From the IMG/VR virus record IMGVR_UViG_3300021964_000151, positions 1 through 42,824 of that record: 42,824 bases of DNA, one strand, 5' to 3'. The number at the start of each line of letters is the position of its first letter. Positions within the stretch are counted from its first letter, which is position 1. Below, piece after piece: positions 12,257-41,673 of the stretch. The stretch is from a virus (Duplodnaviria > Caudoviricetes). Below the pieces are notes generated by a model. It worked only from the letters and a program-made list of their open reading frames with translations. It did no database searches and was not told the origin of the DNA. The translations under genes were made by a program, and so were the position numbers.

Positions 12257-12278
12257 AAATACGTAATAAATACTTATA

Positions 12279-19501: not shown

Positions 19502-20944
19502 ATGGGATTATTTGAAACAGGTGGATCGTTTCCAGCAGGATTAACGCCTTCACCTACTAAATCACTTTTCTCAGGTAACTACCTGACTTTTGACTCTGCC
19601 ACTGGTGGCGGAACATTTGCACAACAATTTTTACCAGACGTATACGAAAAGGAAGTTGAGCGTTACGGAAATCGCTCTGTTTCTTCTTTCTTGCGCATGG
19701 TAGGAGCTGAAATTCCTTCTGCTTCAGATCAAGTTATCTGGTCAGAGCAAGGAAGACTGCACATTGCTTATGATGCTGCTGCTGCTAATACAGGAACTAA
19801 TGTAATCACAGAGGCTGGACATGCTGTTCGCGCTGGACAAACTGTAGCTGTTGCTGAGGGACTTGTAACTGTAAAAGCAGTTGTTATTTCTGTAACTACA
19901 GATACATTTACAGTTGCTCCTTATGCTGAGCAAACACTAGATGCTGCTGGTTTATCAACTGGTGCTGCTGTGGCTGTAAAAGTATTTGTTTACGGTTCTG
20001 AATTTGCTAAAGGTTCAGCTGGTATGACAGGATCTGTAGATGCTGGTTTCCAACAGTTTAGCAACTCTCCAATTATTATCAAAGATAAATATTCTATCTC
20101 TGGTTCTGATACTGCACAAATTGGATGGGTTGAAGTAACTACTGAAAACGGTGCTTCTGGATACCTATGGTATTTAAAATCTGAGCACGAAACTCGTTTA
20201 CGTTTTGAAGACTACCTTGAAATGTCAATGGTTGAAGGTGAATTAGCTGCTACTACTGGTAATGGTTCTGAAGCTAACGATCAAGGATATAAAGGTACTG
20301 AAGGTCTTTTTGCTGCTATTGAAAGCCGTGGAAATATCTATCAAAACTTTAATTCTGGTGAAGCTACACTAAGTAACGCTGGATCTGATAGAACTGCTCT
20401 TCAAGATTTTGATGAAATACTTAAAAACCTTGACAAGCAAGGAGCTATTGAAGAAAACATGCTTTTCTTAAACAGAGCTACTGCGCTTGCTTTTGATGAT
20501 ATGCTAGGAGCTGTAAATGCTCACTATAATGGTGGAACTTCTTATGGAGTATTCAACAATAGCGAGGATATGGCACTTAACCTAGGATTTAGCGGTTTCC
20601 GCAGAGGTTCTTATGACTTCTACAAAACTGACTGGAAATACTTAAACGATGCTGCTACACGTGGGCTTACTGAAGATATTGATGGTGTAATGGTACCCGC
20701 TGGTACTTCAACTGTATACGATCAGCAACTAGGTAAGAACATTAAGCGTCCTTTCCTACACGTACGCTACAGAGCTTCTGAAGCTGATGATAGAAAAATG
20801 AAATCTTGGATCACTGGATCTGTAGGTGGAGTTTATACTTCTGACGTTGATGAGATGAATGTACACTTCTTGTCTGAAAGATGTTTATGTGTTCAAGGAG
20901 CAAACAACTTTACTTTATTTAAGTCTGTTACTCAAGGAGCATAA
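19502..20944 (+). CDS. Major capsid protein (HK97 fold, crAss-like type)
   Basis: 480 aa after the scaffold gene. It has an Ala/Val-rich insertion domain, a GTEGLFAAIESRG segment, codon usage typical of high expression (GCT/GGT/ACT/TTC/AAC) and a strong downstream terminator. Confidence 0.85.
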   Translation: MGLFETGGSFPAGLTPSPTKSLFSGNYLTFDSATGGGTFAQQFLPDVYEKEVERYGNRSVSSFLRMVGAEIPSASDQVIWSEQGRLHIAYDAAAANTGTNVITEAGHAVRAGQTVAVAEGLVTVKAVVISVTTDTFTVAPYAEQTLDAAGLSTGAAVAVKVFVYGSEFAKGSAGMTGSVDAGFQQFSNSPIIIKDKYSISGSDTAQIGWVEVTTENGASGYLWYLKSEHETRLRFEDYLEMSMVEGELAATTGNGSEANDQGYKGTEGLFAAIESRGNIYQNFNSGEATLSNAGSDRTALQDFDEILKNLDKQGAIEENMLFLNRATALAFDDMLGAVNAHYNGGTSYGVFNNSEDMALNLGFSGFRRGSYDFYKTDWKYLNDAATRGLTEDIDGVMVPAGTSTVYDQQLGKNIKRPFLHVRYRASEADDRKMKSWITGSVGGVYTSDVDEMNVHFLSERCLCVQGANNFTLFKSVTQGA

Positions 20945-23487: not shown

Positions 23488-26400
23488 ATGGCAGAGCTTA
23501 AGCATACTTTTACGTCCGGTCGAATGAATAAAGACTTGGACGAAAGACTTATTCCTAATGGAGAGTATATTGATGCACAAAATATACAAATATCTTCATC
23601 TGAAGGTTCTGATGTTGGCGCTATTGAAAATTTATTAGGTAATGAAAAATTATCTAAATTAAATTTAAAAAACGCAAAAACACTAGGTAGTATTGCTTAT
23701 AACTTAAAAGATAAAATATATTGGATTGTTACATCAGACAACATAGATGGTATATATGAGTTTGATGAAAAACAACAAACGGTATCTCCTATATTAATAG
23801 ATAGCAAAGAAACTAAATCTATTAATTTAAATAGTGCCGCTGTGTATAGCAACGTTGATAATGAGCTTATTATAGATAGTTTTAATTTGGGTAGCATTAA
23901 AGAATTGATTGGTAATGATTTACCGGGTGCTATTGATGAGGAAAAGTTAGTAAAAAATAATATTTACATTTCTTCTGTTGATCCATATATAAGAATATCT
24001 ATACCAAAAAATACTGTTATAAAAAAAGATACAAATGGAAAAATTGTATTTAAAAACGTAGAATATAACGGTAAAAAATATAGGGTTGACTTTAAAGCTA
24101 CGTATACTTCAAATGGTATATTAAATTTTTCTAAAAACAATTTAATTACTGGTATAAATATAGTAGATGATCTTTTGTTTTGGACTGATAATCTTAATCA
24201 GCCAAGACGCATAAATATATCTTCATTTAAAAAGCATACTGACGATGAGTTTAACAAAGACACACAAATAGAATATGCTGAAAAAGATCCTACAACCAAA
24301 CAAGTAACAAAACTCAAAAGAAACTTTACCGAAGATGATATTTCTGTAATTAAGAAATCTCCTATGTATGCACCGTCTATGGAATTATATGATTCTGTAA
24401 CAGATGGTATAGTTGATATTAAATATACTTTAAATTTATCAAACTTATACATAGGTCAAATATTTACGTTGAGTAGTTTAACTAATGTGCCGTCTTGGGT
24501 TGTTGGTGATTTTGTTACAATACAATCTGATGCCGCTGACTTTGTTTTAGACGCATCGGTAAAATCTGTTACAGATACAGCGGTTGAATTAAGTCTAGCT
24601 ACTATATCTGGCGATATTGATAATATATCATATGACTGTAATATAAATCTAAAACAAAAGAAAGCTTTATATGAACTTAATTTTGTAAGATTTGCATACC
24701 GTTGGAAATATAAAAACGGTGAATACTCTACATTATCACCTTTTACAGAGCCCGCATTCATTCCGAATGAATTTAAATATGACGGAAAAGAAGCTTTTAA
24801 TTATGGCATGATTAATAAGCTACAACGTGTTATATTAAATAACTTTGATTTAGGTAAGGATGATATAGCTGAAATAGATATATTATTTAAAGAAGGCCGT
24901 AATCAAAACATATATGTTCTTAAAACAATTAAAAAGTTAGATTTTACTAATGAGTATATAATTACTAAAGAACAAATACATTCTGTAATACCTAATAATC
25001 AGCTATTAAGAGCATGGGATAATGTACCTAAAAGAGCCAAAGCACAAGAAGTTACAGCTAATAGAGTTATATATGGTAATTATACACAAAACTATGATGT
25101 ATATAGTGAACCGGATATAAGTGTATCTACTGTGGCTAGACAAGATGATTTAAATAGAACAATAAAGTCTAATAGAACATATCAAATAGGTGTAGCTTAC
25201 ATAGATGAATATAATAGGCACACACCTGTTCTCTCTAATGATACTGGAGCTTTTGAAATTACAAAAGATAATTCTGTATTAAAAAATCAATTTTCTTTAA
25301 CCCTTAATAACCAACCGCCTGCATGGGCTAAGCATTTTAAATATTACATAAAAGATACTTCTGGCGAATATTATAATTTATCTGCAGATAGATATTATAA
25401 AGATACAGAAAATGGATTTACTTATATATCATTTCCATCATCAGATAGAAACAAAGTAACTAATGACCACTATCTTATATTAAAGAAAAATCATGGAGAT
25501 AATAATCCAGTTTTAGAAAAAGATAATAGATATAAAATTATTGATATATTTTCTGATCCTCCAGAATTTATAACAAATAGGAAACGTGTTGTATATTCTT
25601 TAGGTGATATTGTATTTACTGATGACTATGCTGGATCTGGCGGAGGCACAACTATTACTAATAAAGCAGATGCCGAAGGAAATGCGCCATTAAAAGATTA
25701 TGCTACTATTCAAATTAAACAAGCAAACTCTAGCGCAGATGGGGTTAGCTTAGATGATGCAAATGAAATTAAACCTGGAAGATATATTTCTTTTGAATAC
25801 TTGGGTAAGGAGTCTAAAAAATATAAAATAAAAAGATTATCACAACATCCATCTGGAGATAATGAAATTAAAATTGATTTTGAAGAACCTTTTGGTGACG
25901 ACGTTGAAATAATTTATAATAAAAATACTGGTAATTTAGGAGACGTAACTACTAATTTTGGCGTTAATATGAATATTTCAGAAGAATATTCAGCCGCTGG
26001 AGATAAAGAATTTGATGGAAGATTTTTTATTAAATTAAAAACAAATTCTGTTTTAGAAAATTCTATAATATCTCAGACTATTGGAGGTGTTAGTTATTTA
26101 GCTAAAAAATCAATACCACTTATTGGAGTTTATTCTAAAAACGATGATAATGGAACCGGTAGAAGAGGTGAAAATAGTTGGTTTAATATAAATAGAATTA
26201 AAGACAACGCATCAAGAGACCCTAAAAATGAATTTGTTGTTTCTGATGGTGGTACAGCTATACCAGGTAATACACCTGAATCTGGTAAAAGAGTTGTAAA
26301 AGGTAGTTTAGAGTATAATATTACTTTAGAGTCAGCTACTGAACACATGCACAGAAGCGTTGATAGCTTAGCTAAACTAGCTAAAATTGGAAATTTTGTA

Positions 26401-29400
26401 AGATTTGTAAATGCTGATGGAACACCTCACCATGATACCGTATATGAAATTGGAAACGTATCTGTTGATTCATATGAAACAAAATACGGAGCTAGTGGGC
26501 CTTTTTCAGCTAAAGGAGACATAAAAAGAATAAGCTTTAGATTTGTTGATGAAAATGGTGATTTTAAAGCTTTAGATGCTAATGTTGTAAAAAGAGGTGA
26601 CGATACTTGGGGTGAAGAACCTCAAATGGAAATATTACAAGAATTAACTGAAGAAAATGTTTTAATAAAAGATCCAGCTATATTTGAAACTGAGCCATTA
26701 GATAGAAAAACAGAGCTTGATATATATTACGAAACTGAAAAAGCAATATCAATTGAAGAGCATGGACAAACCCATATATTAAACTGGTATAATGCTATTT
26801 CTTTTGGTAATGGTGTTGAATCTAACCGTATTAGGGATGATTTTAACGCGATATTTATTGATACAGGTGTTAGAGCATCAACTGTACTTGCTGAACCGTT
26901 TAAAGAAGAGCATAAGTTTAATGGATTAATTTGGTCTGGTATTATTAATTCAAGATCAGGCACAAATCAGTCTAACCAATTTAATATGGCAAACGCTATA
27001 ACGAAGGATTTATTACCTTCTTATGGTAGTGTACAAAAGCTATTTGCTAGAGACGGCGATATTGTTATTTATTGTGAAGATAAAATTGTAAGGGCTTTAG
27101 CAGATAAAGATATACTCTACAATGCTGATGGGTCCGCAAATGTTACAGCAAGTAGAAATGTAATAGGTAATGTAATCCCTTTTGCTGGAGAATATGGTAT
27201 ATCACAAAATCCCGAATCATTTGCTTTTTATGGTTTTAGAGCATATAATGCTGATCCAAAACGCGGTGTTGTATTAAGATTGTCGCGAGACGGAATTACA
27301 CCTATTAGTGCTGCTAATATGGGGAGTTATTTTAGAAATACATTGTTTGGTTATGACAATGAGATAATAGGTTCTTACGATAATAGAAATAAATTATATA
27401 ACTTATCATATGGTAATGACACTATATGTTTTAGTGAAGATATAAATGGCTGGGTAACTTTTAAAAGCTTTTTACCACAAAATGGTGTATCATTAAATAA
27501 TGTATATTATAGTTATTATGATGCTGAATTATGGCAACACGACTTTGTAGATGCTATAAGAAATAGATTTTACGGTGAACAGTATTATTCATCAATTGAA
27601 CTCAACATAAACGATAATCCTTCTGTAGTTAAAAAATATAAAACTTTAGGGTATGAAGGGACTAAAGGATGGAAAGCCAGTGTTATCACTGACCAACAAA
27701 CAAGTTCAGAATTAACTTTTAAAGAAAAAGAAAACAAATATTTTGTAAATATAACTGGCGAAGCTAAAGAGCTAGGCAGCATTGATACAAAAAACTTTTC
27801 TGCACAAGGCTTAGGTAGATCAGTCAGAAAAACATCAATATCATTTACAACAGGTAATGTAGTTGCTGGACAAAACGGTGAAATAATAATATTAGGCGCT
27901 GGTAACACAGCTATTGGACCCGACTACATTATAACAGGTGAAAATATTATATATACACCTAATCCCGATGGAACAATAACAGTCAATGGAACTAATGTTG
28001 GAGGTTCGAGCGGTACAGGTAATACTACTGGCGGCACAACAATTTCTACCGGTGGTAGTACAGTTACAGTTAATGATACCGCATCAAATACAACAGGAGA
28101 TTTTAGTGATACTGGGGGCGGTAACACTACTGTAAATGATGAAGATCCTTATGTTGATCAAGTAGGTGACGTAGGAAATACTACAACTACATTAGACTTA
28201 GATTTAAATGGTACTGGTTTTTACACTAAACCTGTAGAAATAACACAGAAACCTGGTGAGCAAATATCACAAGCTGTATTTACAATATATCCTGAAGACG
28301 GTTATCAAATAACAGCATCTGATTTTGTTTCATCAGAAGTAGATTTAAATGGTAATAACAATATAGTATTTGAGCAAGATGGTAACAATGTAAAAGCTAC
28401 CGTTACAATTAATGAAAATCAAAGCTCAGACGATAACACTTTAATTTATAATGTTACTGCAACTGCTGATAAAAAACCTATAGAGATTAAAGGTACTCCA
28501 CAATTAAGTCTTACTAATGCAACTATAGACAATACAGATGTTGATAGTTATCAAGTTAGTGGTAGCTATGGTGAAGAAAAAATTATTTCTGAAAGGATTA
28601 TAACTGCCGATGATGGTTATTATTTAACAGCTGATTCTATTACTGTAGATAATCCTAATGTAATTTTAGAAAAAATTAAATTATCTGATAAATCTTATAA
28701 GATAATAGAGACTGTGTTTGTACCTAAAAATGCAACAAGTAATAATAATTATACTATTACAGTTACACCATTAGAGGTTGTATTACCAGATCCAAAAATT
28801 ATATCTAAAACAATAAATACAAGTGTAATTCCTAATATTGCAGAAACCAGAGAACTTGTAGTTAATGGAGAGCAAAATGCTGAATTTGAAGTTGTATTAT
28901 CTGATACATCTGGTTTAATATCAAAAGAAAGTTATACTATTGATGTAACTGGTAAAAAAACAATACCTTTAATATTTGATAGTTCTGATGCTGCAGAGAC
29001 TTATACATTAAAAATAAATAACATAACAGGTACAGATGTAGATACTGGTTTTGGTAATCAAACAATAACATTGACTCGAAACCAAAAAGGTAGAAAAACA
29101 GCAACGTTTTTAGTTAAATACTCTAACACTATAAATAACACTTTTTCTATTGAAGATTACATAGGACAAGGTACAAATAGACAATTTACATTTGATTTAA
29201 CTCTTCCAGCTGGAACTTATACTATAGGAAAACAACCGGCATCAACAGATGTTGTTCTTGGAGATAATAATAATGGTGCTTTTGTGTTATTAAATAATAT
29301 AGAGTTTGATGCTGTAAATACAAACGTACTTACTGTTTCTGGTACTTTATTTGTTAGCAATTTTCAAGAAGATGAAACTTACACTTTAGATATATCACCG

Positions 29401-32055
29401 TTTGTTGGAAAAGATGTTACAACAACATTTGCATCTTCTGTAAACGCTAGTGACGGGAATCCTGCGGGTAATTTTACAATAGCAGCTACATCGTATACTG
29501 TTGATGGTGGATCAGGCTTGAATTCAACTCCTGCTGAAACAGAGTACTTTTTTACATTAACACCCTCTGCTTCATTTGAATTTGACAGTACTATTGATGC
29601 TGATGATTTTGTATTGTTAGATTCTAGTAATAATAACGTAACTGCTGATTATGCTGCGAATGGAGAATTATTATTACGTAAAGTTGGTGATACAATAGAG
29701 GTTGGCTTTAAATCAAAAACTTTTATACAGCCTTCAGCGACATCTACATTTACTTTAAGACCAAAAGTTGGTGTTACATTAACTCAAGCTGAGGTTACAA
29801 CTAATGTAACTAAATACACTTTAAAAGTAAATATTAATTATACGGTAGACGGTGTTTTAAATAATATAAATACAGCTACTAGAAGCAGAACTAATTTTGA
29901 TTCTACAACAGCTACGTTATTTCCTATATATCAATCATTAACTCAATTAGCTAATTTAGGTATTATTGATACAACACAATTTACAGATAGTAATTTATTC
30001 TTTATAGATAACGCTAATAATACTGAAGTTACATTAGCCCCAGCAGGATCTTATACAAACGATAGTGGTAATGCAGTAACAACTACTGGTGAATTTGAAT
30101 TTAACGCATCTAATAATTCTTTAATAACAAACTTGCTTGTTGATTTAAATAGTGATGCAACTATATCATTTAATGAAGTAAATGTAAATGTAAATTTAAA
30201 TTCTAATAAAACGATAGATGCCAACGGTAATGTTATTACAAAATATCATTTAGTTGAAGTTAAATTAGCTGGATGTGCAGAGCAAGTTAATGGCCCTAAT
30301 GAAAATGATAGATCTTGGTCACCAATAAATGAGTCTTCTAATGTATACCCAAAATACTATGCTACAAGTTCTTTGCTTGATGAAGATGTAAGAATATTTG
30401 TTAGAAATAATTCAAATGAAACAATACCTGGCAACTTAGCTTCGTTTACAGCAACTAATCTGATACAAAAAAATAATGAAAAATTATTTACAGTAAGTAC
30501 TAAAAACATAACTTCAGGCACACAAGCAGGGTGGTTGTTTAACAAGGGTGTTTGTTCTTTAGATGGTTCGCACTTAAAATTATTTACAAACACTAAGAAG
30601 CACGAGCTGTATAATGATATAATAAAATACAGTTATCCTATTAGTAGTACTATATTTAAAAATGAAAAGCAAACTTTAACAGGTAGTATTAAGATAGATA
30701 ATAAAGCAAATTATGATGCTATAGTACAGGACATATCCTCAAAAGGTTTTAATATAAAGCCAGTACAAGGGGCATCAATAGACGCTAATGCTTTAACTTT
30801 TACTTATGATGCTTATTTTGATAATAATGGTAATTCTAGTTTTGATTTTAATTTATTACGAGGAGCGGACGAATATAAATTAGACTTTACTTTTGATGAT
30901 GTTACGGCAGACAGCACATTCAATAAATTATCTGGTACATCGTATGAAATGAGAAGAAGAGCAATTGATGATCAAGATAATAACGATCATATTGCGCAAA
31001 ATACATTGAATCAATACAACGTAATAGAAGACTACAATACTACAGTTGCTCTTGATAGATATGATGATGGATCAAGTAATTTTGATAGTACGGCTAATAG
31101 AATAACAGATAATGCGCCAGCCGGTGGTGGTGTATATGGGTATACTGCAGATGCCACTAATATAAAAATTATACCTCAACAATATTTAGATAATAATAAT
31201 GTTTTAGAGTTTTTAAATGGAACAACATTTGCTAAATTAGGTGCTTCTAATTTTCGATGGAATGTTTCAGCAACGCCAAATGTTCCTGATTTATTAAGAA
31301 ATGGTGATTATTTTGATTTAGACATTAGATCTACAAGTGCTGGGCCTTTAGGAAATACAACTTATACAAAAACAGGTTATACAGTGGTATTATCGGCTCC
31401 TTCCGCCGCTACCGCTGATTATGCGTCTTTTATTGGATTATGGGTTGCTATTAACAACGGAGATATAACAAGTTTAAAAATTCCTATAGATTTGGTTTCC
31501 CCTTCATCTAAAGCATTAAATAATGAAGATATAGTTACAACAGAAAGAGTATCTATTGATATAGCAGGAACTATTATAAATACAACTTTAGATATAGGCG
31601 GTGGTTATGCTGCGTTAGAAGAAACCGGGTGGTGGCCAAGTTCGAATAGTAGAGTAAACCGTTGGAAAAATTATTATATTGGAGGGGGGAATAATGTATA
31701 TATTTCAGAAACTCAAGGACCTGATGGATTGATAGCATTACCAAATTTTGCAGGTATACAATTTAGTTTTGGAATTACAACAAAACGGCTTACAGATTCT
31801 AAAAGTCCAATTTTAGCTTTTGGAAAAGTTCCTTTTTCTATTTATTCTTTTAAAAGTGTTAGCAGTAGTAAACTAATCAATAGTGCTACAAATTATTCAT
31901 TTTCACAAATTGATTACCAAAAAGGAAATCGATGGGATTACACTTATCATGAAAAAAATAATTTATATATTACTAATAAAATGATGGGAAATCAAAGTAT
32001 TCATGGTACATATAATCCCTCTAATCTAAATTATCTAAAATTTAAAATGGCGTAA
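23488..32055 (+). CDS. Tail stabilisation/muzzle protein (P22 gp10/crAss muzzle-like) with a ~1400-aa C-terminal beta-rich extension
   Basis: N-terminal F-x-x-GRMNKDLDERLIPNGEYIDAQNI, ITGINIVDDLLFWTDNLNQPRRINI, RFAYRWKY, YGISQNPESFA and WVTFKSF beta-propeller motifs. These are followed by a Gly/Thr linker and Ig-like segments. Confidence 0.8.
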   Translation: MAELKHTFTSGRMNKDLDERLIPNGEYIDAQNIQISSSEGSDVGAIENLLGNEKLSKLNLKNAKTLGSIAYNLKDKIYWIVTSDNIDGIYEFDEKQQTVSPILIDSKETKSINLNSAAVYSNVDNELIIDSFNLGSIKELIGNDLPGAIDEEKLVKNNIYISSVDPYIRISIPKNTVIKKDTNGKIVFKNVEYNGKKYRVDFKATYTSNGILNFSKNNLITGINIVDDLLFWTDNLNQPRRINISSFKKHTDDEFNKDTQIEYAEKDPTTKQVTKLKRNFTEDDISVIKKSPMYAPSMELYDSVTDGIVDIKYTLNLSNLYIGQIFTLSSLTNVPSWVVGDFVTIQSDAADFVLDASVKSVTDTAVELSLATISGDIDNISYDCNINLKQKKALYELNFVRFAYRWKYKNGEYSTLSPFTEPAFIPNEFKYDGKEAFNYGMINKLQRVILNNFDLGKDDIAEIDILFKEGRNQNIYVLKTIKKLDFTNEYIITKEQIHSVIPNNQLLRAWDNVPKRAKAQEVTANRVIYGNYTQNYDVYSEPDISVSTVARQDDLNRTIKSNRTYQIGVAYIDEYNRHTPVLSNDTGAFEITKDNSVLKNQFSLTLNNQPPAWAKHFKYYIKDTSGEYYNLSADRYYKDTENGFTYISFPSSDRNKVTNDHYLILKKNHGDNNPVLEKDNRYKIIDIFSDPPEFITNRKRVVYSLGDIVFTDDYAGSGGGTTITNKADAEGNAPLKDYATIQIKQANSSADGVSLDDANEIKPGRYISFEYLGKESKKYKIKRLSQHPSGDNEIKIDFEEPFGDDVEIIYNKNTGNLGDVTTNFGVNMNISEEYSAAGDKEFDGRFFIKLKTNSVLENSIISQTIGGVSYLAKKSIPLIGVYSKNDDNGTGRRGENSWFNINRIKDNASRDPKNEFVVSDGGTAIPGNTPESGKRVVKGSLEYNITLESATEHMHRSVDSLAKLAKIGNFVRFVNADGTPHHDTVYEIGNVSVDSYETKYGASGPFSAKGDIKRISFRFVDENGDFKALDANVVKRGDDTWGEEPQMEILQELTEENVLIKDPAIFETEPLDRKTELDIYYETEKAISIEEHGQTHILNWYNAISFGNGVESNRIRDDFNAIFIDTGVRASTVLAEPFKEEHKFNGLIWSGIINSRSGTNQSNQFNMANAITKDLLPSYGSVQKLFARDGDIVIYCEDKIVRALADKDILYNADGSANVTASRNVIGNVIPFAGEYGISQNPESFAFYGFRAYNADPKRGVVLRLSRDGITPISAANMGSYFRNTLFGYDNEIIGSYDNRNKLYNLSYGNDTICFSEDINGWVTFKSFLPQNGVSLNNVYYSYYDAELWQHDFVDAIRNRFYGEQYYSSIELNINDNPSVVKKYKTLGYEGTKGWKASVITDQQTSSELTFKEKENKYFVNITGEAKELGSIDTKNFSAQGLGRSVRKTSISFTTGNVVAGQNGEIIILGAGNTAIGPDYIITGENIIYTPNPDGTITVNGTNVGGSSGTGNTTGGTTISTGGSTVTVNDTASNTTGDFSDTGGGNTTVNDEDPYVDQVGDVGNTTTTLDLDLNGTGFYTKPVEITQKPGEQISQAVFTIYPEDGYQITASDFVSSEVDLNGNNNIVFEQDGNNVKATVTINENQSSDDNTLIYNVTATADKKPIEIKGTPQLSLTNATIDNTDVDSYQVSGSYGEEKIISERIITADDGYYLTADSITVDNPNVILEKIKLSDKSYKIIETVFVPKNATSNNNYTITVTPLEVVLPDPKIISKTINTSVIPNIAETRELVVNGEQNAEFEVVLSDTSGLISKESYTIDVTGKKTIPLIFDSSDAAETYTLKINNITGTDVDTGFGNQTITLTRNQKGRKTATFLVKYSNTINNTFSIEDYIGQGTNRQFTFDLTLPAGTYTIGKQPASTDVVLGDNNNGAFVLLNNIEFDAVNTNVLTVSGTLFVSNFQEDETYTLDISPFVGKDVTTTFASSVNASDGNPAGNFTIAATSYTVDGGSGLNSTPAETEYFFTLTPSASFEFDSTIDADDFVLLDSSNNNVTADYAANGELLLRKVGDTIEVGFKSKTFIQPSATSTFTLRPKVGVTLTQAEVTTNVTKYTLKVNINYTVDGVLNNINTATRSRTNFDSTTATLFPIYQSLTQLANLGIIDTTQFTDSNLFFIDNANNTEVTLAPAGSYTNDSGNAVTTTGEFEFNASNNSLITNLLVDLNSDATISFNEVNVNVNLNSNKTIDANGNVITKYHLVEVKLAGCAEQVNGPNENDRSWSPINESSNVYPKYYATSSLLDEDVRIFVRNNSNETIPGNLASFTATNLIQKNNEKLFTVSTKNITSGTQAGWLFNKGVCSLDGSHLKLFTNTKKHELYNDIIKYSYPISSTIFKNEKQTLTGSIKIDNKANYDAIVQDISSKGFNIKPVQGASIDANALTFTYDAYFDNNGNSSFDFNLLRGADEYKLDFTFDDVTADSTFNKLSGTSYEMRRRAIDDQDNNDHIAQNTLNQYNVIEDYNTTVALDRYDDGSSNFDSTANRITDNAPAGGGVYGYTADATNIKIIPQQYLDNNNVLEFLNGTTFAKLGASNFRWNVSATPNVPDLLRNGDYFDLDIRSTSAGPLGNTTYTKTGYTVVLSAPSAATADYASFIGLWVAINNGDITSLKIPIDLVSPSSKALNNEDIVTTERVSIDIAGTIINTTLDIGGGYAALEETGWWPSSNSRVNRWKNYYIGGGNNVYISETQGPDGLIALPNFAGIQFSFGITTKRLTDSKSPILAFGKVPFSIYSFKSVSSSKLINSATNYSFSQIDYQKGNRWDYTYHEKNNLYITNKMMGNQSIHGTYNPSNLNYLKFKMA

Positions 32056-32394: not shown

Positions 32395-33171
32395 ATGCCT
32401 TTACCATTAATAGCAGCAGCTGCTCCTGGAATTATAAAAGCAGCGGGTTCTCTTATAGGAAGTAAAGCTAGAAAAGAAGAACAAGAATCTGCTAAAGCAG
32501 AATTAGCTCAACGAAGACAAGCTTACGAAACATTTGAGTTTAAGGACCCTTCAGCTCAAATGACAAACCCTTTTGAAGACTTAACTGTTAATCAACAACA
32601 AGCACAGTTTCAAGCTCAACAACAGCAACAAGGTTTAGCTAGTACACTATCTGGCATGCAAGCTGCGGCTGGGGGGTCTGGTATTGCAGCATTGGCGCAG
32701 GCAATGGCTGGGCAACAATCTCAAAATCTTCAGGCTGCGTCGGCAAGTATTGGACAACAAGAAGCTGCAAATCAAATGGCTGCAGGCCAAGGGCAAATGC
32801 AATTACAACAAGCAAGAGCGACCGGTCAACAATATGTCCAAGACAAGGAATTTGAAAGAACAGAAACATTATTAGGCATGTCACAACAAAGAAAAGCAGC
32901 AGCAGATGCAGCAAGGGCAGCAGCAACGCAGGACTTAGTTGGTGGTATTGCCGAAGCGGCAGGCGGTGCATTAGGAGCATTAGGTGGCCCAACAGATTTT
33001 AAAAAATATAATAAATCACAAAATACAAGGGGATCAATAAAATCAGTAACGTCTGGAAATGAATTACAAACTGCTGGGGCTCAAAAATTAACAACCCCTG
33101 GAATAAGTAAATACAATAGTCCAAGCTCAATGTCTATAAATGATGCGTTAAGAGCAAAACTAGGCGGATAA
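32395..33171 (+). CDS. Ejection/DNA-pilot-like protein
   Basis: Ala/Gly hydrophobic N-terminus, Gln/Ala-rich coiled coil and a second Gly/Ala segment. It is the first of three genes after the tail, the usual position of podovirus internal virion proteins. Confidence 0.6.
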   Translation: MPLPLIAAAAPGIIKAAGSLIGSKARKEEQESAKAELAQRRQAYETFEFKDPSAQMTNPFEDLTVNQQQAQFQAQQQQQGLASTLSGMQAAAGGSGIAALAQAMAGQQSQNLQAASASIGQQEAANQMAAGQGQMQLQQARATGQQYVQDKEFERTETLLGMSQQRKAAADAARAAATQDLVGGIAEAAGGALGALGGPTDFKKYNKSQNTRGSIKSVTSGNELQTAGAQKLTTPGISKYNSPSSMSINDALRAKLGG

Positions 33172-33183
33172 AAATAAAATAAT

Positions 33184-34737
33184 ATGGCAAATTTAGCATT
33201 AATAAGAGGCGCAGGGATTTCTGCAGACAGATATGTTAGTATAAGCAATGCTGTAGACAGGGGTGTACGTACTTTTGAAACAGCCCAACAAAAAAGAGAA
33301 GCCGAAGCAGAAAAACTTAGACTAGAAAAAGAAAGAGAAGAATTAATAAAGGCTAAAGACTATAAAAGCTTAGGGGCTTTACAGACTGATAGTATACCTG
33401 AGGCTTGGCGAGGCTGGTATACACAGCAAGCTTTATCTGTTAAAGATGAAAATAGGCAATTAGTTAGTCAAAAAGGATCAATGAACCAATTTGATTATAT
33501 GGATTCTTTATCTAATCAAAATAAAAAAATTGCACAAATGCAAGGCTCTATTAATGCTATAAAAGAATATTCACAAGCTTACAAAGAAATATCTGAAGGT
33601 GGTGATTTTTCAGATTCTTTAACAGCTGATGAAAAAGGTCTGATACAAGATATTGTGCAATTAAATGGTGAGCCAGTATTTAAAGATGGTCAAATGTATT
33701 TTAAAAGTAATACAACAGGTCAGGAAGTTTCTTTTGATGATTTACCTGAATTAACTACAAAAGATTATGAAACTCATAATAAAATAGAAAAAGATATTAT
33801 AGGTATTGCAGAACAAGCAGCCTCTAAAGGAATGTTTATTGGAGGTGAAGATACTGAACAAAGTGCATATCTTGAACAAAAGATTGATAACTATTTTAGA
33901 AATCTTGAAATGCAACCAAAACAAGCTCTTTCACTAGCAACAGACTTTTTAAAAATGGGTGGGCCATTTGGAGAGTTAGCACCTATGTTTAAAACACTTA
34001 CGGGCAAAAATGCTATTGACGCAAATAATGATGGAGAAATTGATGAAAATGAATATATACAATCATTTAAAGATATTGCTTTACCAGAAGACTTTGTTAA
34101 TAGAGTTAAACAACAATATAAAACTATAGCTTTAAACACATCGTCTAATCTTAAAACCGAGTACGATAGGGTTAATAAAATTAAGGCTGAGCAAGCTAAA
34201 AGAAAAGGAGATTTAAATAAATGGGAGTTTGATGAATTAATGCGTCAAAGAGAATTAAAAGCGACTTCAGTATTTTTAAAACCTATAAAAAAATTTTTAG
34301 GGCCTAATGCAATAAATGAAAGTCAAGCAAAATCTTTTATTAACTATGCAAATACAAATTTACCCGGTCTTGAAATTTATCAAAATACACAAACAGATGA
34401 TGATGGAGAACTTTTAAATCCAAATGCATATGTTATAGAAGTTGATGGTAAACAAAAACCATTTATTATAGGGGAAACAACTGGTGCGGCAATAGATAAA
34501 TTTATTAAGGATTTATATGGTTATAGTATTACTGATCGTTTAACTATGTTCGGTGAAGAAGCAGAAGAAAAAGAAGAAGAATTTGATGAAACTGAATTTG
34601 AAATTTTAGATGATATTGATGTGCAAGGTACATTAAATGAAATAAACACTGCTAATACTTTAAGTGAATTAAATAAAGCTGATTCTGCTCAAAGAGCTAG
34701 ACTTAGAATACAAAAAGAACAAGCTGGAATAAAATAA
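33184..34737 (+). CDS. Probable ejection (internal virion) protein with an EF-hand-like loop
   Basis: 517 aa, helical and charged, with DANNDGEIDENE at 34018-34053. Position within the ejection cluster. Confidence 0.55.
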   Translation: MANLALIRGAGISADRYVSISNAVDRGVRTFETAQQKREAEAEKLRLEKEREELIKAKDYKSLGALQTDSIPEAWRGWYTQQALSVKDENRQLVSQKGSMNQFDYMDSLSNQNKKIAQMQGSINAIKEYSQAYKEISEGGDFSDSLTADEKGLIQDIVQLNGEPVFKDGQMYFKSNTTGQEVSFDDLPELTTKDYETHNKIEKDIIGIAEQAASKGMFIGGEDTEQSAYLEQKIDNYFRNLEMQPKQALSLATDFLKMGGPFGELAPMFKTLTGKNAIDANNDGEIDENEYIQSFKDIALPEDFVNRVKQQYKTIALNTSSNLKTEYDRVNKIKAEQAKRKGDLNKWEFDELMRQRELKATSVFLKPIKKFLGPNAINESQAKSFINYANTNLPGLEIYQNTQTDDDGELLNPNAYVIEVDGKQKPFIIGETTGAAIDKFIKDLYGYSITDRLTMFGEEAEEKEEEFDETEFEILDDIDVQGTLNEINTANTLSELNKADSAQRARLRIQKEQAGIK

Positions 34738-34749
34738 ATAGAATTTAAT

Positions 34750-37700
34750 ATGCCTATATATACATTACCAAACGGAAAAAAATATAATATACCGGAAGAT
34801 AAAGTAAATACTTTTTTAAACAAATTTCCAGAAGCAACAATTGATTCTTTGGGAAAGATAACTCCTCCGCGGGAAGATCAAATGGGTGCGCTTGCGGAGG
34901 TAAATGTAGCACCCACAAATATGGATTTGTCTTTGGAAATGCCTTCTTTGGGTTCACAAGAAAAAGACACAGCAATTGAAAGAGCTTTTGGAAAAAATTC
35001 TTTAACTGATTTTTTTGGTGATATTTACAGGGCTGCTAATAAAGGATTAGAACAATCTAGTTTAGTAGACCCTAGTATAAATTTATATAGAGAAGGGGCT
35101 GAAGCAGATGATGAAACTATTTTAAATTTTATAAAAGCCAATGAAGAAACTAATAAGAATATCATGCAATCCGACGAGATGCGTGAGTTTAATAAAATAT
35201 ATGAAGAAGAAGGGGGCGGCTGGTGGGGCTTTATAAAAGGTGCTGCTTTAAATCCGACCGTATTGACTCAAGAATTAGCTAGCTCTATTGCAATGCAAAT
35301 TGGAGCATTAAAATCTGATGAAGTTGCAACAGCCGCAACAGCGGGATTAGGGGCAGGGGCTTTAGCTGGTGCTCCTTTTGCTTTAGTAGGCGCAATACCG
35401 GGGGGAATTGCTGGTGCAATGGGTGGAGCAATGGCAGCATTAGAAACTGGTTTAACATTTTCAGAATTATTAAATAAAGAATTAGGAGATAATTTAACAG
35501 TTGAAAATGTAAGAGCATTTTTACAAAATGAAGAAAAATTATCTGACCTTAAAAATAAAGCTTTAGGCAGAGGGCTAACTATTGGTGCAATTGAATTGGC
35601 TACAATGGGTATTGCTAAAGGTGTTGGTAGCAAAATAGCTAAAGCTGGATTTAAAAGAGCAGGTGTAGCCGCTGCTGGGGCTATTGGAGGTATTGAAATA
35701 GCCGGAGGAGCAACTGGAGAAATAGCTGGAAGATTTGTTGCTGGACAAGAAATGGACGCAGCTGAAATTGGGTTTGAAGCATTTGCAGGGCTTGGATCTG
35801 CTCCAATTAGCATTTTAGGACAGTCCAAAAACATTAGCAAAAGTATAACTAGATTAAAAATAGATAAAGAGCTTAAAAATACAAATTATAATAATGCTTC
35901 AGATTTATTTATTAATGAAGAAAAAACATCTGACGCAGCGATTAATTTAGCTAAAATTAAAAATGCTGAAACAATAGTTTCCGAGGAAATAAATAATAGA
36001 GCTAAAAAAGGCGAAATTACAAAAGAGCAAGCAGAAAAAGCTAAAGAAAATCTTGCTAGTACTACTTTTTTTAATAATATACTTGAAGACGTTAATGTTC
36101 CAGAAGCTAATAAGGCTGAAGTAATTGATTTATTAAAAGAGCAAAATGCTTTAAGAAATAAAATTAAAAAAGTTAACAATCCTAGCCTAACAAAACGCGA
36201 TTCAAAAAGATTAGAAGAATTAGATAATAGAATTGATCAAATTATAACAGAAAAAAAATTAGAACAATCCATTCAATTTGCTGAAAAAGGCGCTAAAAAG
36301 TTAGGACTAAAAGTACAGTCGCTTAATAAAAAAGAAATTGCTAAAAAATATAAAGGCAGTAAAAAGCTTAATGATTACTTAGAATCTGATGGCTTTATAG
36401 AAAATGGGGTAATTACTATTAACACAGACACAGCAAAAGAAACACGCGCTGTAACAGTAGGTAGTCACGAACTTTTGCATGGGATTTTAAATAAAGAGCT
36501 AAAAGGAAAAGACAGAAAAAAAATAGTAGCTGAATTTAAAAATATAATTAGCAAAGATCAATTAGCTATAATTGAAGAAAGGCTGTTTGCTAAAAATGAT
36601 AAAGGCGAGAGACTTTACAGTGATGAGTATTTAGAAAATGAAGGTATAGACGAATATTTTACTGCATTTTCAGATGCTATATTATTAGGCGATATAAAAT
36701 ATAACGAAAATATATTTACAAAGCTTGGGGATTTTATAAGGCCTATATTAAGAAAATTTGGATTTAGTAAAATAAAATTTGATTCTGGTAGAGATGTATA
36801 TAACTTTCTTAAAGAGTATAATAAATCTGTAAAAAAAGGTGAGCTTTCAAAAGAATTATCAGGTATTCAAGCAGCTATTGAAAGTGATGTAGCACAATTT
36901 TCAAAATCAAAAGCTTCCGATAGAGTACAACAAATATATGAAGCACAAGGCGCCGCAAACGCGTTAGATATTATAGATGAGTTCAAGCCCATTGTAGACA
37001 GAATTGTAAATAAGTATCGCAATGTACCAGGCTTTGAATATCAACTACTAAAAGATGAAATAGAAACAGGCAAGCGTGGTATTCTTGACATGATAATGTC
37101 ATATACCCCTGAAAAAGCTAAAGGGGCACCATTAGCCGGTTATATAAATAGTTTACTACCTAAAAGAGCAATTGAAGCAGCCCAAAGAGTTTTAGGTACT
37201 GAATTTACTGTTGATGTTACAGAAGCAAAAGGCGTTACAGACACAGTCACAGAAGACGTTTTAGAAGCCGCAGAAGAGACTAATGTTGCTGATGAAATAA
37301 AAAGCTTACGTAAAGAAATAGGATTACCAGAAGAGCTTGTAACTAAAGTTAAAAAAGCTGTAATAAAAACATTTGGTACTAAACTACCAAGCCCTGAAGA
37401 TCCTAAATTTAAACTTGAATTACAAAAAGCATTTAGAACAGAGCTTAAAAAGCCTATAGCTAAATTTGTAGGTAGACAAGAAGATTATGAATTGTTTTTA
37501 CGGGACAATTTTAAGGCTATATATGATAAATTACCTCAGTCTTTAATTAATAGAAGATTTAAAGACTTTGCTGAACCTGTTTTAGATAAAAGCGGCAAGC
37601 AAATGCGGGAGCGCACTGCAGAAGGTAAAAAAATATTTACAAAGAAAAAACTTACTACAGCTGAATTTATAAAATACTTTTTAGGTTCCGATGTTGGCCG

Positions 37701-40700
37701 ATCAACGCAGGGAACGCGTAAAACAGCTATTGTTGAAGCTGTTGCAGAAGAAATTGCATTTGATGCTACAATGGAAGTTTTGCAAGATCCTGATGTTTTA
37801 AGTAGATACGAGGAAATTGCAGGTATTACTGAAATTACTTTACCTGAAAACTTTAAAGCATTAATTGCAAAACAAATAGATAGATCAGAAGGATTACAGT
37901 TTTCAAAATCATTGGCTAATGAAGCTAAACTTGAGTACAATTTAGAAAGACCAGATCTGGTTAAACTATTAGAAACTACGGACAGTAATAAATTACGTAA
38001 AAATTATCCATTAATAATGGATAGTATAATGCATGAATATGATGACAACACTGTTCAGTTTAGCCTTACAACTAAAGCTGAAGGCAAATGGATACAAGAG
38101 CCATTAAATCCATTAGATGAAAGTTCAAAATTATATAAATTTAAAGTAGGAGAAGTAGATTATGAAATAAAAACATTTAAAGACCCGGCTGCTTTTGATT
38201 ATAGTGTATTTGAGCAAACAGAAGGTATTGGGCTACGTGAGGTTATTGACAATGATCCAAAGTCATGGGCTATGACTTTTGCAGATGCATTAGATGGCTC
38301 TACAGATATAACAGGGGTTGCAGTGGGAGGGCTTACTAACCAATTTAAAGTATTTGGGACTGTAGCTAATGCAACTATAGATTTAATTAAAAGCCAAAAA
38401 TTAAATTCTATAACATTTACTGCTAAAGAAAAAAGCAGAAAAAGGTTATATAGATCTTTAAATGAAAAATTTGCTAAGGATTTAGGATGGGATACATATG
38501 ATTATGAAATACGCACCCCAGATGGCGAAGAAACTGTATTTATAGCTTATAATCCAAAATTTACTGAAAATAGAAATATAGATTCCAATCCAGCTTCAGT
38601 ACAATTTAGCAATACACCATCTGCTAATGATATTCTTAATAATACGGAAAAATGGAAAAAATATCAAAAAGAGGAGTTAAATAATGCTAAAATTTTTCAA
38701 GAAAAAGTAGGTAATATAAAAGCTAGATCTGGAAGTTTTTGGCCTTCTTGGATATTAAATACGAGTATTATACCTGGTTTTGATGAATTAAAGAAAAAAG
38801 ATTCAAAAAAATCTAAAAATGTAGAAAAGCGTATTAATGATTTTAGAAAAAAAATAATAAATACTAAAATAAAAAATAAAACAAGTATACGCGAAAAATA
38901 CAATGTATTTTTTTATAGGCCTAATAAAGCTTATGGAACTAATTATACTGAATTTATAAAACTTTTAAAAAGTGGTCAAATTTTTAAATTGCAACAGGCT
39001 TACCTAAATATTTATGATGATATGTGGGGTGCTTATTTTGATTTACTTAAAGAAAACCCTAATATATACGATTTTCTTGAAAGAACATTGCAAACTTCTA
39101 ATAATGAAGTGGGGCACTGGCATAGACTAGGTGCTGAATTTATTGGAATTGACCCTGAAGCTATAGAAGACTTTGTTTTAGATAAAAATGGCAAAAAAAT
39201 TAAAATTTATCGTACGGATAAAGACGGTAACATTAAACAATATTTTAAAAAGCAAACATACGAATTTGAGCATGCTGTTCAGAATCATATTGTATGGAAA
39301 AAGCTTTTAAATTTAGCTAAAGATCTTTCTAAAAAAGAAAATGGCAAACAGCTTTTTATGGAAGAAGTTCAAAAAGCAAAAGAAAATTATAAATTATTTG
39401 CTTTATCCGTTTCTGATGCAAGAAAAGTTGATAAGGCTGGGTATGGACAAAAAATGCCTAAAGATTGGAAAACATTTTTAGATAGATATTTTAATACTAA
39501 AGTAGCGGCAATAGATAATGGTATTGACCCTGGAAAAATTGTTTTTATAGAATACAAAAATGGCAAAGCTGAAATAAACGGTAATATTAAAGATGCGTTT
39601 AATATTAAAGATAATGAAGGCAAAACACAGTTTTCAAGATCATTAAATAAAGAATTTAATAAACTATTAGAACAATCAAGTGGTATCAGAGCTACAAAAC
39701 AGTTTTCACCTATTGAAGCTAGAATTTTAGGTAAAGGTAAAGGCCGTAATAAATTCTTTATTCCTTATTCAGCTGATGATTTTGTTGGTTTGCTATACGC
39801 AACTTTAGCTGGTGGCAAAACCGGTGATCAACAAATGGAATGGTATCGTGAAAATCTGCTTAGACCATTTTCTCGCGGTATACAACAATACGAAGCAGCA
39901 AAACAGAATGCTCTTCGTGAGTGGCAGATTCTTAAAAAAGAAGCAAAGAAAAATGTACCTGGCGGATTAACAAAAAAGAACGCAACAGGTTTAACAAATC
40001 AAGACGCTGTTCGTATTTATATTTGGAATCAACAAGGTATGGAAATTCCTGATACAAAAGGAAGCCAAGCTCTTATTAATGAAAATATAAAAATTGTAAG
40101 AAAGAATAAAGAGCTTAAAGCATTTGCCGAAAGACTAATGGCTTTACAGCCAGAAGGTTATCCAGAACCATCTAAAAATTGGGATTCAGGTGATATTACT
40201 ACAGACATTGTATCATATATAAATGGTGTTAAAAGAAGTGAATTTTTAACTGAATGGAAAAATAATGTTGATATTATATTTTCTGATAAAAATAAAGAAA
40301 AGCTAAGAGCTTTATATGGTGATAGATATGTTGAGGCTTTAAATGATATGCTTGACCGTATGCGTACTGGCACAAATAGAAAATTTGGTATAAGCAGAAT
40401 TGAACAACAATTTATGGATTGGACTAATAATTCTGTAGGTGCTATTATGTTCTTTAATGCAAGATCTGCTGTACTACAAACATTATCTGCCGTTAACTTT
40501 ATAAACTTTACAGACAATAATCCGCTCAATGCAGCATTAGCATTAGCTAATCAACCACAATATTGGAAAGATTTTGCTACGTTATTTAATTCAGACTTTC
40601 TTAAGCAAAGAAGGTCCGGTTTACAAACTGATGTAAATGCAGATGAAATTGCAAGAGCAGCTAAAGGCGCTGAAAATACAGCAAGAGCAGCATTGAGTGC

Positions 40701-41673
40701 AATACTTAAATTTGGATTTACACCAACACAAATTGCTGATAGTTTTGCAATTGCGTCTGGTGGTGCTACATTCTATAGAAATAGAATAAATAAATATTTA
40801 AAAGAAGGGTTATCACAACAAGAAGCTGAACAAAAAGCATTTACTGATTTTCAAGAAATTGCAGAAGAAACACAACAGTCTGCAAGACCTGATAGAATAT
40901 CATCACAGCAAGCAAGCTCATTAGGACGTCTTATATTAGCTTTTGGTAACACACCTATGCAGTATGCTCGTTTAACTAAAAAAGCTACATTAGATTTAAT
41001 TAATGGACGCGGTGATTGGAAGACGAATATAAGTAAAATTATGTATTATAGCGTAATACAGAATATTATATTCTCTGCATTACAACAAGGATTGTTTGCT
41101 TTATTATTTGACGATGAAGATGATGATAAAGAAAAATCAAGATTGTTTAGAATAGGCAATAGTAGTTTAGACACATTATTACGTGGGGTTGGGGTTTACG
41201 GTGCTGCGGCTGCTACTGTTAAAAACATGATCCTTGAAATAATAGACCAGCAAAAAAGCGGTAGACCTGATTATACTGAAGTTGTAATTTCAGCTACTGC
41301 AATATCACCTCCAATTAATTCTAAATTAAGAAAATTAAATTCAGCTGGTAAAACATTTACATATAAGCAATCTAAAGAAAAAGTATTTACTGAAGGCTTT
41401 AGTTTAGAAAATCCTGCATTTTTAGCTGGTGGCCAAATAATTTCTGCAGCAACAAACTTACCTGCTGATAGAGTTGTTTTAAAAGCTGATCATATTAAAA
41501 CAGCTATGCAATCTGAAACAGAATTATGGCAGGCAATAGCATTATCGCTTGGTTGGAGCGAGTGGGATTTAAATATGATTGAAAAGCAAACTAAAAAATC
41601 TAAAAAGTTTGATCCTAGAAATACAAATAGAAATATTAATAGGGGATTAAAAAGAAAAAAAGTAAAAAGATGA
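34750..41673 (+). CDS. Giant polyvalent ejection protein: membrane-insertion region, zincin metallopeptidase, sigma-like domain, further cargo domains, helical C-terminus
   Basis: 2307 aa. Gly/Ala hydrophobic helices at about aa 190-355, HELLH at aa 573-577, a sigma70 region-2-like segment at about aa 738-815 and six QFS motifs. Confidence 0.7.
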   Translation: MPIYTLPNGKKYNIPEDKVNTFLNKFPEATIDSLGKITPPREDQMGALAEVNVAPTNMDLSLEMPSLGSQEKDTAIERAFGKNSLTDFFGDIYRAANKGLEQSSLVDPSINLYREGAEADDETILNFIKANEETNKNIMQSDEMREFNKIYEEEGGGWWGFIKGAALNPTVLTQELASSIAMQIGALKSDEVATAATAGLGAGALAGAPFALVGAIPGGIAGAMGGAMAALETGLTFSELLNKELGDNLTVENVRAFLQNEEKLSDLKNKALGRGLTIGAIELATMGIAKGVGSKIAKAGFKRAGVAAAGAIGGIEIAGGATGEIAGRFVAGQEMDAAEIGFEAFAGLGSAPISILGQSKNISKSITRLKIDKELKNTNYNNASDLFINEEKTSDAAINLAKIKNAETIVSEEINNRAKKGEITKEQAEKAKENLASTTFFNNILEDVNVPEANKAEVIDLLKEQNALRNKIKKVNNPSLTKRDSKRLEELDNRIDQIITEKKLEQSIQFAEKGAKKLGLKVQSLNKKEIAKKYKGSKKLNDYLESDGFIENGVITINTDTAKETRAVTVGSHELLHGILNKELKGKDRKKIVAEFKNIISKDQLAIIEERLFAKNDKGERLYSDEYLENEGIDEYFTAFSDAILLGDIKYNENIFTKLGDFIRPILRKFGFSKIKFDSGRDVYNFLKEYNKSVKKGELSKELSGIQAAIESDVAQFSKSKASDRVQQIYEAQGAANALDIIDEFKPIVDRIVNKYRNVPGFEYQLLKDEIETGKRGILDMIMSYTPEKAKGAPLAGYINSLLPKRAIEAAQRVLGTEFTVDVTEAKGVTDTVTEDVLEAAEETNVADEIKSLRKEIGLPEELVTKVKKAVIKTFGTKLPSPEDPKFKLELQKAFRTELKKPIAKFVGRQEDYELFLRDNFKAIYDKLPQSLINRRFKDFAEPVLDKSGKQMRERTAEGKKIFTKKKLTTAEFIKYFLGSDVGRSTQGTRKTAIVEAVAEEIAFDATMEVLQDPDVLSRYEEIAGITEITLPENFKALIAKQIDRSEGLQFSKSLANEAKLEYNLERPDLVKLLETTDSNKLRKNYPLIMDSIMHEYDDNTVQFSLTTKAEGKWIQEPLNPLDESSKLYKFKVGEVDYEIKTFKDPAAFDYSVFEQTEGIGLREVIDNDPKSWAMTFADALDGSTDITGVAVGGLTNQFKVFGTVANATIDLIKSQKLNSITFTAKEKSRKRLYRSLNEKFAKDLGWDTYDYEIRTPDGEETVFIAYNPKFTENRNIDSNPASVQFSNTPSANDILNNTEKWKKYQKEELNNAKIFQEKVGNIKARSGSFWPSWILNTSIIPGFDELKKKDSKKSKNVEKRINDFRKKIINTKIKNKTSIREKYNVFFYRPNKAYGTNYTEFIKLLKSGQIFKLQQAYLNIYDDMWGAYFDLLKENPNIYDFLERTLQTSNNEVGHWHRLGAEFIGIDPEAIEDFVLDKNGKKIKIYRTDKDGNIKQYFKKQTYEFEHAVQNHIVWKKLLNLAKDLSKKENGKQLFMEEVQKAKENYKLFALSVSDARKVDKAGYGQKMPKDWKTFLDRYFNTKVAAIDNGIDPGKIVFIEYKNGKAEINGNIKDAFNIKDNEGKTQFSRSLNKEFNKLLEQSSGIRATKQFSPIEARILGKGKGRNKFFIPYSADDFVGLLYATLAGGKTGDQQMEWYRENLLRPFSRGIQQYEAAKQNALREWQILKKEAKKNVPGGLTKKNATGLTNQDAVRIYIWNQQGMEIPDTKGSQALINENIKIVRKNKELKAFAERLMALQPEGYPEPSKNWDSGDITTDIVSYINGVKRSEFLTEWKNNVDIIFSDKNKEKLRALYGDRYVEALNDMLDRMRTGTNRKFGISRIEQQFMDWTNNSVGAIMFFNARSAVLQTLSAVNFINFTDNNPLNAALALANQPQYWKDFATLFNSDFLKQRRSGLQTDVNADEIARAAKGAENTARAALSAILKFGFTPTQIADSFAIASGGATFYRNRINKYLKEGLSQQEAEQKAFTDFQEIAEETQQSARPDRISSQQASSLGRLILAFGNTPMQYARLTKKATLDLINGRGDWKTNISKIMYYSVIQNIIFSALQQGLFALLFDDEDDDKEKSRLFRIGNSSLDTLLRGVGVYGAAAATVKNMILEIIDQQKSGRPDYTEVVISATAISPPINSKLRKLNSAGKTFTYKQSKEKVFTEGFSLENPAFLAGGQIISAATNLPADRVVLKADHIKTAMQSETELWQAIALSLGWSEWDLNMIEKQTKKSKKFDPRNTNRNINRGLKRKKVKR

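Follow-up and report, generated by a model that had tools for sequence, protein, structure and literature searches.

How does a phage begin to transcribe its genome when host-type promoters are scarce and no RNA polymerase (RNAP) can be recognised among its genes? The known routes into a phage infection are host-type promoters and a polymerase packaged in the virion. The question is raised by relatives of the virus record IMGVR_UViG_3300021964_000151, a 42.8-kb stretch of DNA (42,824 nucleotides (nt), analysed over its whole length and referred to below as the window) with a completeness estimate of 65%. On its + strand, the open reading frame (ORF) at 34750..41673 encodes a modular polyprotein of 2,307 amino acids (aa), the third and largest of three putative ejection proteins and the end of the virion block, and within it lies a module whose first domain is predicted to resemble domain 2 of sigma-70 factors. 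We propose, with somewhat better than even confidence, that this module is an injected early sigma factor acting on the host core RNAP, with a stand-alone sigma factor serving the later genes. The wider picture, in which a clade of uncultured Bacteroidota podoviruses without their own polymerase is independent of host sigma factors by means of a released sigma, a new DNA-binding domain, a tripartite promoter with a 21-bp spacer and a handover to a second sigma, we hold at slightly less than an even chance.

The initial annotation had quoted a sigma70-like peptide between the first two of six Q-F-S sites of the polyprotein, which could be confirmed: the peptide is in frame at window positions 36970-37188 (aa 741-813 of ORF 34750-41673) and is enclosed by QFSK at aa 716 and aa 1050. 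An AlphaFold2 model from a 41-sequence alignment showed two domains with a disordered acidic linker between them. The first domain, aa 718-818 (36901..37203, + strand), was modelled with predicted local distance difference test (pLDDT) values of 65-87 and corresponds approximately to sigma regions 1.2-2.4. When the model was compared with 48,161 solved chains by VIA, its residues 1-101 matched sigma domain 2, with Staphylococcus aureus SigB as best row (Z 8.0, root-mean-square deviation (rmsd) 3.0, 86 residues). By entry title, the top 24 rows comprised 19 sigma factors, 4 bacterial or phage transcription complexes and 1 epitope scaffold, and the first unrelated fold appeared at rank 25 with Z 5.8, about 2 Z units below the best. 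The likeness extends over 80-91 residues (rmsd 2.7-3.6) to several sigma-70 domain 2 (PF04542) structures, namely SigB (8x6g), sigma-32 (8hkc), sigma-70 (1sig), FliA (6pmj) and AlgU (8z6g). Additionally, a profile of 84 sequences over aa 719-822 matched the stand-alone sigma of related phages with a score of 27.2 (E 0.0005), compared with 14.5 for the reversed profile and at most 13.4 for 30 column shuffles.

Residue conservation points in the same direction, in a register onto sigma regions 2.2-2.4 that was set by eye and with position roles that we take to be those of the sigma family. Of 84 diverse representatives, 100% have an aromatic residue at Y785 and 96% at Y798; R806 is R or K in 100%, and L795 is L or F in 91%. 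Aromatics thus occupy region 2.2-2.3 positions, those of region 2.3 used for melting of the -10 element being present and the WW pair of group 1 being absent. From the region 2.2 core-binding motif D-x-x-Q-E-G, D769 (D 56%, E 14%) and G774 (62%) are retained, while the QE pair is variable.

Several results weigh against this assignment. The VIA Z-score of 8.0 lies within the range for which the tool itself warns of common helical arrangements, Foldseek returned no match for the two-domain model at E<=0.001, and the Atlas match (recognition 2242, 129 shared features) counts as weak by the criteria of the Atlas itself. The QE of DLIQEG reads ET here, with neither position reaching 55% conservation. 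Plain Pfam searches found no family in the domain, nor in any of 19 close members, the Sigma70_r2 cut-off not being reached, and faint Sigma70_r2 matches appeared at the module start in 2 of 44 distant homologues (E 0.044 and 0.099). Searches of PHROGs and of PDB by sequence and by profile gave no significant sigma match, only SigE and RpoS fragments at E 0.44-0.45. The reading as sigma-70 region 2 is therefore upheld by the predicted fold and by the profile comparison, but it finds no support from Foldseek or Pfam and has a degenerate QE pair; we regard aa 718-818 as predicted to fold like sigma-70 domain 2. A sigma-derived or sigma-like helical bundle without RNAP contact, forming a structural or other effector part, would be compatible with the modest Z-score, the missing Foldseek match and the degenerate core-binding motif, as well as with the free swapping of the three other, variable cargo modules of the polyprotein, each of which occurs in only 20-25 of 119 homologues. 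We nevertheless consider it improbable: the module is present in 119/119 homologues (these were selected by the module itself) and in 12/12 genomes, 7 of them found by a DNA motif and not by protein, its conserved residues fall on sigma-2 positions, and host-type promoters are nearly absent from the module-bearing clade.

The acidic linker, aa 822-849 (37213..37296, + strand), is predicted to be disordered (pLDDT <50), with 10 D/E against 1 K/R over aa 819-850. It leads into a conserved helical domain, aa 851-1049 (37300..37896, + strand), with a basic beta-hairpin at aa 935-970 (12 K/R against 5 D/E), which, folded alone, reached a pLDDT of 92 and a predicted template modelling score of 0.86. 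Among the 50 rows of a VIA search we found neither sigma 3 nor sigma 4 (best Z 5.1), Foldseek gave no match at E<=0.001 and Atlas no usable one, and the profile of this domain did not align to the complete stand-alone sigma of relatives (E 0.27). A winged-helix identity was considered and rejected, as the scattered rows at Z 3.6-4.6 are not evidence for it. The segment that the initial annotation likened to a region-3 helix-turn-helix (HTH) does not bear this out; it opens a separate 200-aa domain to which sigma 3 and sigma 4 are unmatched. We treat this domain, which accompanies the sigma-like one in all 119 homologues, as a candidate reader of upstream promoter elements that would bind DNA. 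The module family comprises 653 proteins among 5,074 candidates, forming 597 clusters at 50% identity.

In related genomes we observed an early motif of fixed spacing, TACA-N7-YACGA-N8-GGATAATA, upstream of tiny genes near the genome end, with 21 nt between TTTACA and GATAAT. Its strict form occurs in 72 IMG/VR stretches. Each of the 12/12 near-complete genomes carries 6-9 copies, nearly all oriented toward HTH and sigma genes, and 0/3 module-less relatives carry any. With deeper profiles, one or both domains of the module were detected in 12/12 motif-bearing genomes, a shallow profile having missed it in 3/10 complete ones. An identity of the early motif with the phi14:2 middle promoter was rejected, the intergenic sites there being of TAnnTTTG type and the early motif being absent from the half genome scanned.

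According to PMC9723704, TAnnTTTG is the flavobacterial housekeeping promoter box. Intergenic TAnnTTTG before ORFs was found 0-4 times in the 12 motif-bearing genomes, compared with 16 in elemo, 14 in Manatee Spring, 15 in Panino, 8 in phi38:1 and 7 in half of phi14:2. In ten genomes chosen on capsid similarity only, host-type sites number 5-13 in the 4 that lack both module and sigma, and 0-2 in the 6 that have either. In a capsid tree of 33 sequences with midpoint root, however, one branch (support 1.00) splits all eight host-promoter genomes from the module-bearing ones, so that the correlation amounts to one evolutionary switch, which brought in the module, the stand-alone sigma and the new promoters at once. 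The correlation is silent on which protein reads which motif.

This single switch counts against the module as promoter reader, and so do the exceptions to the co-occurrence. The early region is missing from the window, in which we found no convincing early motif. Six genomes (G004, G010, G038, G042, G049 and G052) have the module and no early motif in the available DNA; five of these are incomplete, and part of a second giant gene in G004 suggests an assembly problem. Conversely, G037 has early motif and sigma and no hidden Markov model (HMM) match for the module. Furthermore, the module diverges far more than the early motif: in G017, G021, G022, G025 and G027 it is barely recognisable and the promoter is nearly unchanged.

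A constant motif combined with a varying module would also fit a host reader, that is, an extracytoplasmic function (ECF) sigma of the host reading the early promoter, with the injected module doing no more than bind core RNAP and so silence the housekeeping transcription of the host or compete with it. Flavobacteria have several ECF sigmas with partly unresolved targets (PMC9723704). The early motif is, however, unlike TAnnTTTG, TAnnTTGY, the sigma-54 type and the CGT box given there, and variants fixed genome-wide in G035 and G033 suggest a phage-encoded reader, which leads us to regard a host ECF reader as improbable. All eight early copies in G035 read CGATAAT, and G033 uses TACGA, a 19-nt spacer and GTGATA. 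In G033, whose capsid is near that of the window, module, stand-alone sigma and early motif diverged together (L296:452-6469, L299:9013-9756, L299:541-5640), which looks as if the whole transcription set had been replaced.

Two further elements of early-region DNA were observed. An inverted repeat, TGTGAC..TAG / CTA..GTCRC with about 20 nt between its halves, occurs ahead of the HTH-sigma operon and again close to the genome end (L061:232, L065:16583, L066:2573, L248:9267 and some 40 more sites in relatives); it probably serves as operator for the 205-aa HTH protein. Some copies of the early motif (L063:15267, L065:17302, L067:17672) are directly preceded by a short hairpin of GTATA, loop and TATAC followed by a T run, possibly a terminator separating early cassettes.

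The alternative of an own polymerase was addressed in the genomes of complete relatives. In two terminal-repeat genomes, a scan of 52 ORFs (41 from G005, 11 from G008) found no RNAP, the core virion genes being represented by their window orthologues. PF00623 matched in 0/5 complete genomes, with 14/14 controls positive, this profile being able to miss a crAss-type polymerase; a T7-type RNAP profile also gave 0/5, but was silent on its controls too and therefore shows nothing. In the scanned large ORFs of relatives, D[FY]D[GIV]D occurs once, at aa 195 of G037, and DxDGD or D[FY]DxD motifs occur in none of the three ejection-block proteins of the window. We thus agree with the initial annotation that the ejection block lacks a polymerase catalytic motif, and no RNAP elsewhere in the genome is recognisable in complete relatives. 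Since host-type promoters are few and a polymerase is not recognisable, transcription has to be started by some factor other than a housekeeping one.

Relatives offer a second candidate for this factor, a stand-alone sigma, about 245 aa long and comprising regions 2 and 4. It is present in 14/15 module-bearing genomes, including 10/10 of those at least 90% complete, and was not found in elemo, Manatee Spring and Panino. Its gene comes after the HTH gene, where the replication block begins. The replication block of G005 (L063) and G008 (L066) encodes primase-helicase, ERF, exonuclease, thymidylate synthase and ribonucleotide reductase; DNA polymerase families were not found among the scanned ORFs of these two genomes, unlike in phi38:1. 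A second motif, YGTRATAW, precedes late and replication genes of relatives and, within the window, ORF 12298, where the candidate late promoter is located at 12262..12269 (+ strand), 28 nt before the ORF. Over 87 sites, this motif shows no upstream element.

The stand-alone sigma might therefore read the tripartite early promoter itself, after leaky transcription or by being packaged on its own, and the embedded domain would then be an injected decoy that binds core RNAP and displaces the sigma-A of the host, or a gp55-like reader of the late motif, which consists of a -10 element only. The stand-alone sigma stays highly conserved, with near-invariant regions 2.3-2.4 matching the near-invariance of the early motif, and it possesses both r2 and r4; a late motif without upstream element would suit a sigma-2-only factor. 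Given this conservation and the high variability of the module, the stand-alone sigma as reader fits at least as well. Nevertheless, the early motifs lie upstream of its gene and few host-type promoters are available that could switch it on, which makes an injected sigma a simple solution. The canonical sigma-4 contact corresponds to a 17-bp spacing, and by this sigma-70 geometry the 21-nt spacing of the early promoter is too long: the TACA and YACGA boxes lie about 4 bp too far upstream, which argues against a normal region-4 reader. In G035, moreover, the -13 base is changed, yet between its stand-alone sigma and that of the GG-type G034 only one residue of region 2.4 varies. The melting-type aromatics are conserved in the module, and a decoy would not need them. 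Taken together, we consider the stand-alone sigma as early reader unlikely. The injected factor had initially been left open as sigma or core-binding mimic; the promoters of relatives favour a promoter-reading sigma over a blocker.

For an injected sigma, the polyprotein has to enter the cell. Its gene is the last and largest of the ejection block, preceded by those of a muzzle-like tail protein (23488..32055, + strand; crAss_MUZ_C E 7.9e-10; phrog_14478), which lies directly upstream of the block, of putative ejection protein 1 (258 aa, 32395..33171, + strand; weak T7_gp14 match, E 0.0073; syntenic with phi38:1 gp099) and of putative ejection protein 2 (517 aa, 33184..34737, + strand; syntenic with phi38:1 gp100). 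The phi38:1 syntenic trio gp099-101 is annotated as structural by similarity; blastp showed no similarity between the 2,307-aa polyprotein and gp101. In the polyprotein, aa 63-489 match phrog_32588 (2e-58) and hydrophobic segments are located at aa 195-231 and 2102-2120. As a further point against the proposal, tblastn of the giant protein against 50,697 phage records gave 0 matches, with no homologue detected in any cultured phage, so that its virion location rests on gene position. From this position, we infer a virion core protein that enters the cell. The 517-aa protein additionally contains an EF-hand-like loop at window positions 34010-34070 (aa 276-296, Pfam E 0.006).

Release of the module from the polyprotein could be explained by a HELLH zincin motif of MPTase type at aa 573-577 (36466..36480, + strand), a candidate self-processing protease in a region conserved in 99/119 homologues. 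Candidate cleavage sites are the QFSK linkers at the N-terminal edge (aa 716-719, 36895..36906, + strand) and the C-terminal edge of the module (aa 1050-1053, 37897..37908, + strand). Flanking sequence was sufficient in 208 of 249 homologues. Of these, the proteins with HExxH have [FY]S[KRL] after the module in 142/183 cases and before it in 73/183, compared with 2/25 and 2/25, respectively, for those without HExxH, at a background rate of 7.8%. Linker presence thus tracks the zincin, which fits self-cleavage, and on this co-occurrence the module may be released by a zincin cut at QFS-K. Neither protease nor linkers are present in G028 and G008, so release is not universal.

Between QFS linkers further along the polyprotein, aa 1106-1284 (window 38065-38601) form a cargo module with a weak DUF6934 match (E 0.0005), found in 20/119 homologues; a further variable module of unassigned kind covers aa 1288-1626, and in the homologous polyproteins P0122, P0239 and P0240 a P-loop kinase module (AAA_33, zeta-toxin-like) is added as cargo. 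The best proxy genome, G028, shares 86-94% nucleotide identity with the window over long stretches and 65% in the module. In a comparison with its giant gene (L250), the front two thirds (window 34750-39600) are at 65% or unalignable, whereas identity reaches 86-94% at the tail end and across most of the window; this front-part divergence is apparently a module exchange between near-identical phages.

The window contains an entire virion operon on the + strand, in the order endolysin, holin, tail fibres, terminase, portal, capsid, muzzle, followed by the 258-, 517- and 2,307-aa ORFs. Its major capsid protein (19502..20944, + strand), used for phage placement, shows 41-53% identity to Elemovirus, Callevirus (phi38:1, Pervagoviridae), Maribacter phage Panino and Manatee Spring podovirus, 41-51% to cultured members of Pervagoviridae / Elemovirus and 25% to phi13:2-type phages. 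In the capsid tree the window sits in a separate uncultured clade. The crAss-like phages, with which the initial annotation drew a comparison, do not include this phage in the strict sense, the capsid kin being Elemovirus, Callevirus and Panino. A Shine-Dalgarno-like site precedes 0/23 window genes, which points to a Bacteroidota host; A occupies position -3 in 18/23, and on both counts a non-Bacteroidota host is unlikely. A scan of bacterial genomes yielded a single 2-kb contig, in an Arcobacter bin, which does not count as evidence for a host.

How does such a module compare with known systems? Relative to the sigma-70 family, it is below Pfam detection, has a degenerate QE and no match to sigma 3/4, and is embedded in a 2,307-aa polyprotein. 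T4 gp55 is reportedly a phage late sigma reduced to domain 2 that redirects the host core RNAP, and VIA rank 8 is a gp45-dependent activation complex (7d7d). In contrast to gp55, which is free, is produced in the course of infection and serves late genes, the module is encoded in the virion block, carries an additional domain and would, in our proposal, be the first to act. N4 is said to bring a virion RNA polymerase. In the crAss-like phage phi14:2, gp66 is the virion RNA polymerase (10.1101/2020.03.07.982082), its gene lying in the block after the tail genes. As in these two phages, the gene studied here is the largest of the ejection block after the muzzle, and a solution for early transcription would be delivered with the DNA; unlike there, DFDxD is missing and the cargo would be a specificity factor needing host core, so that early transcription would be rifampicin-sensitive. 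The polyprotein also resembles the phage-type polyvalent proteins with MPTase (Iyer et al. 2017, PMC5512222), being large, near virion genes and equipped with a HExxH zincin and variable, exchangeable cargo. The word sigma, however, has 0 occurrences in the main text of that paper, and no LPD family scored above the Pfam cut-off in the polyprotein. The podoviruses phiEco32 and 7-11 encode a stand-alone sigma for host core RNAP (PMC8948821), as do the relatives studied here; those phages have one free sigma, whereas here a second, embedded one is proposed and host-type promoters are nearly absent. In the literature searched, which leaves subscription papers mostly uncovered, we found no description of a virion-delivered sigma or of this phage group.

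We propose a model in which the polyprotein, judged from gene position to be a virion core protein, would enter the cell together with the DNA. In genomes which encode it, the zincin at aa 573 would cut at QFS-K and free the two-domain module of about 330 aa, an optional step. As its fold suggests, domain 2 would then bind the beta-prime clamp helices and melt the GGATAATA -10 box by its conserved aromatics. Most speculatively, the tethered C-terminal domain would replace sigma region 4 and read the TACA and YACGA boxes. Judged from the gene order of relatives, early transcripts would run to the HTH gene and the stand-alone sigma-70, and the latter would then serve the YGTRATAW middle/late promoters.

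The claim is testable without culturing the phage, since module, stand-alone sigma and both promoter motifs are defined. It concerns a large clade, with 597 clusters carrying the module, and brings with it in aa 851-1049 a domain of confidently predicted fold without a clear solved relative. If correct, the injected module would fill the slot that is held by a virion RNA polymerase in phi14:2 and N4, and a packaged sigma would constitute a cheap third route into infection, rendering the earliest genes independent of the sigma status of the host.

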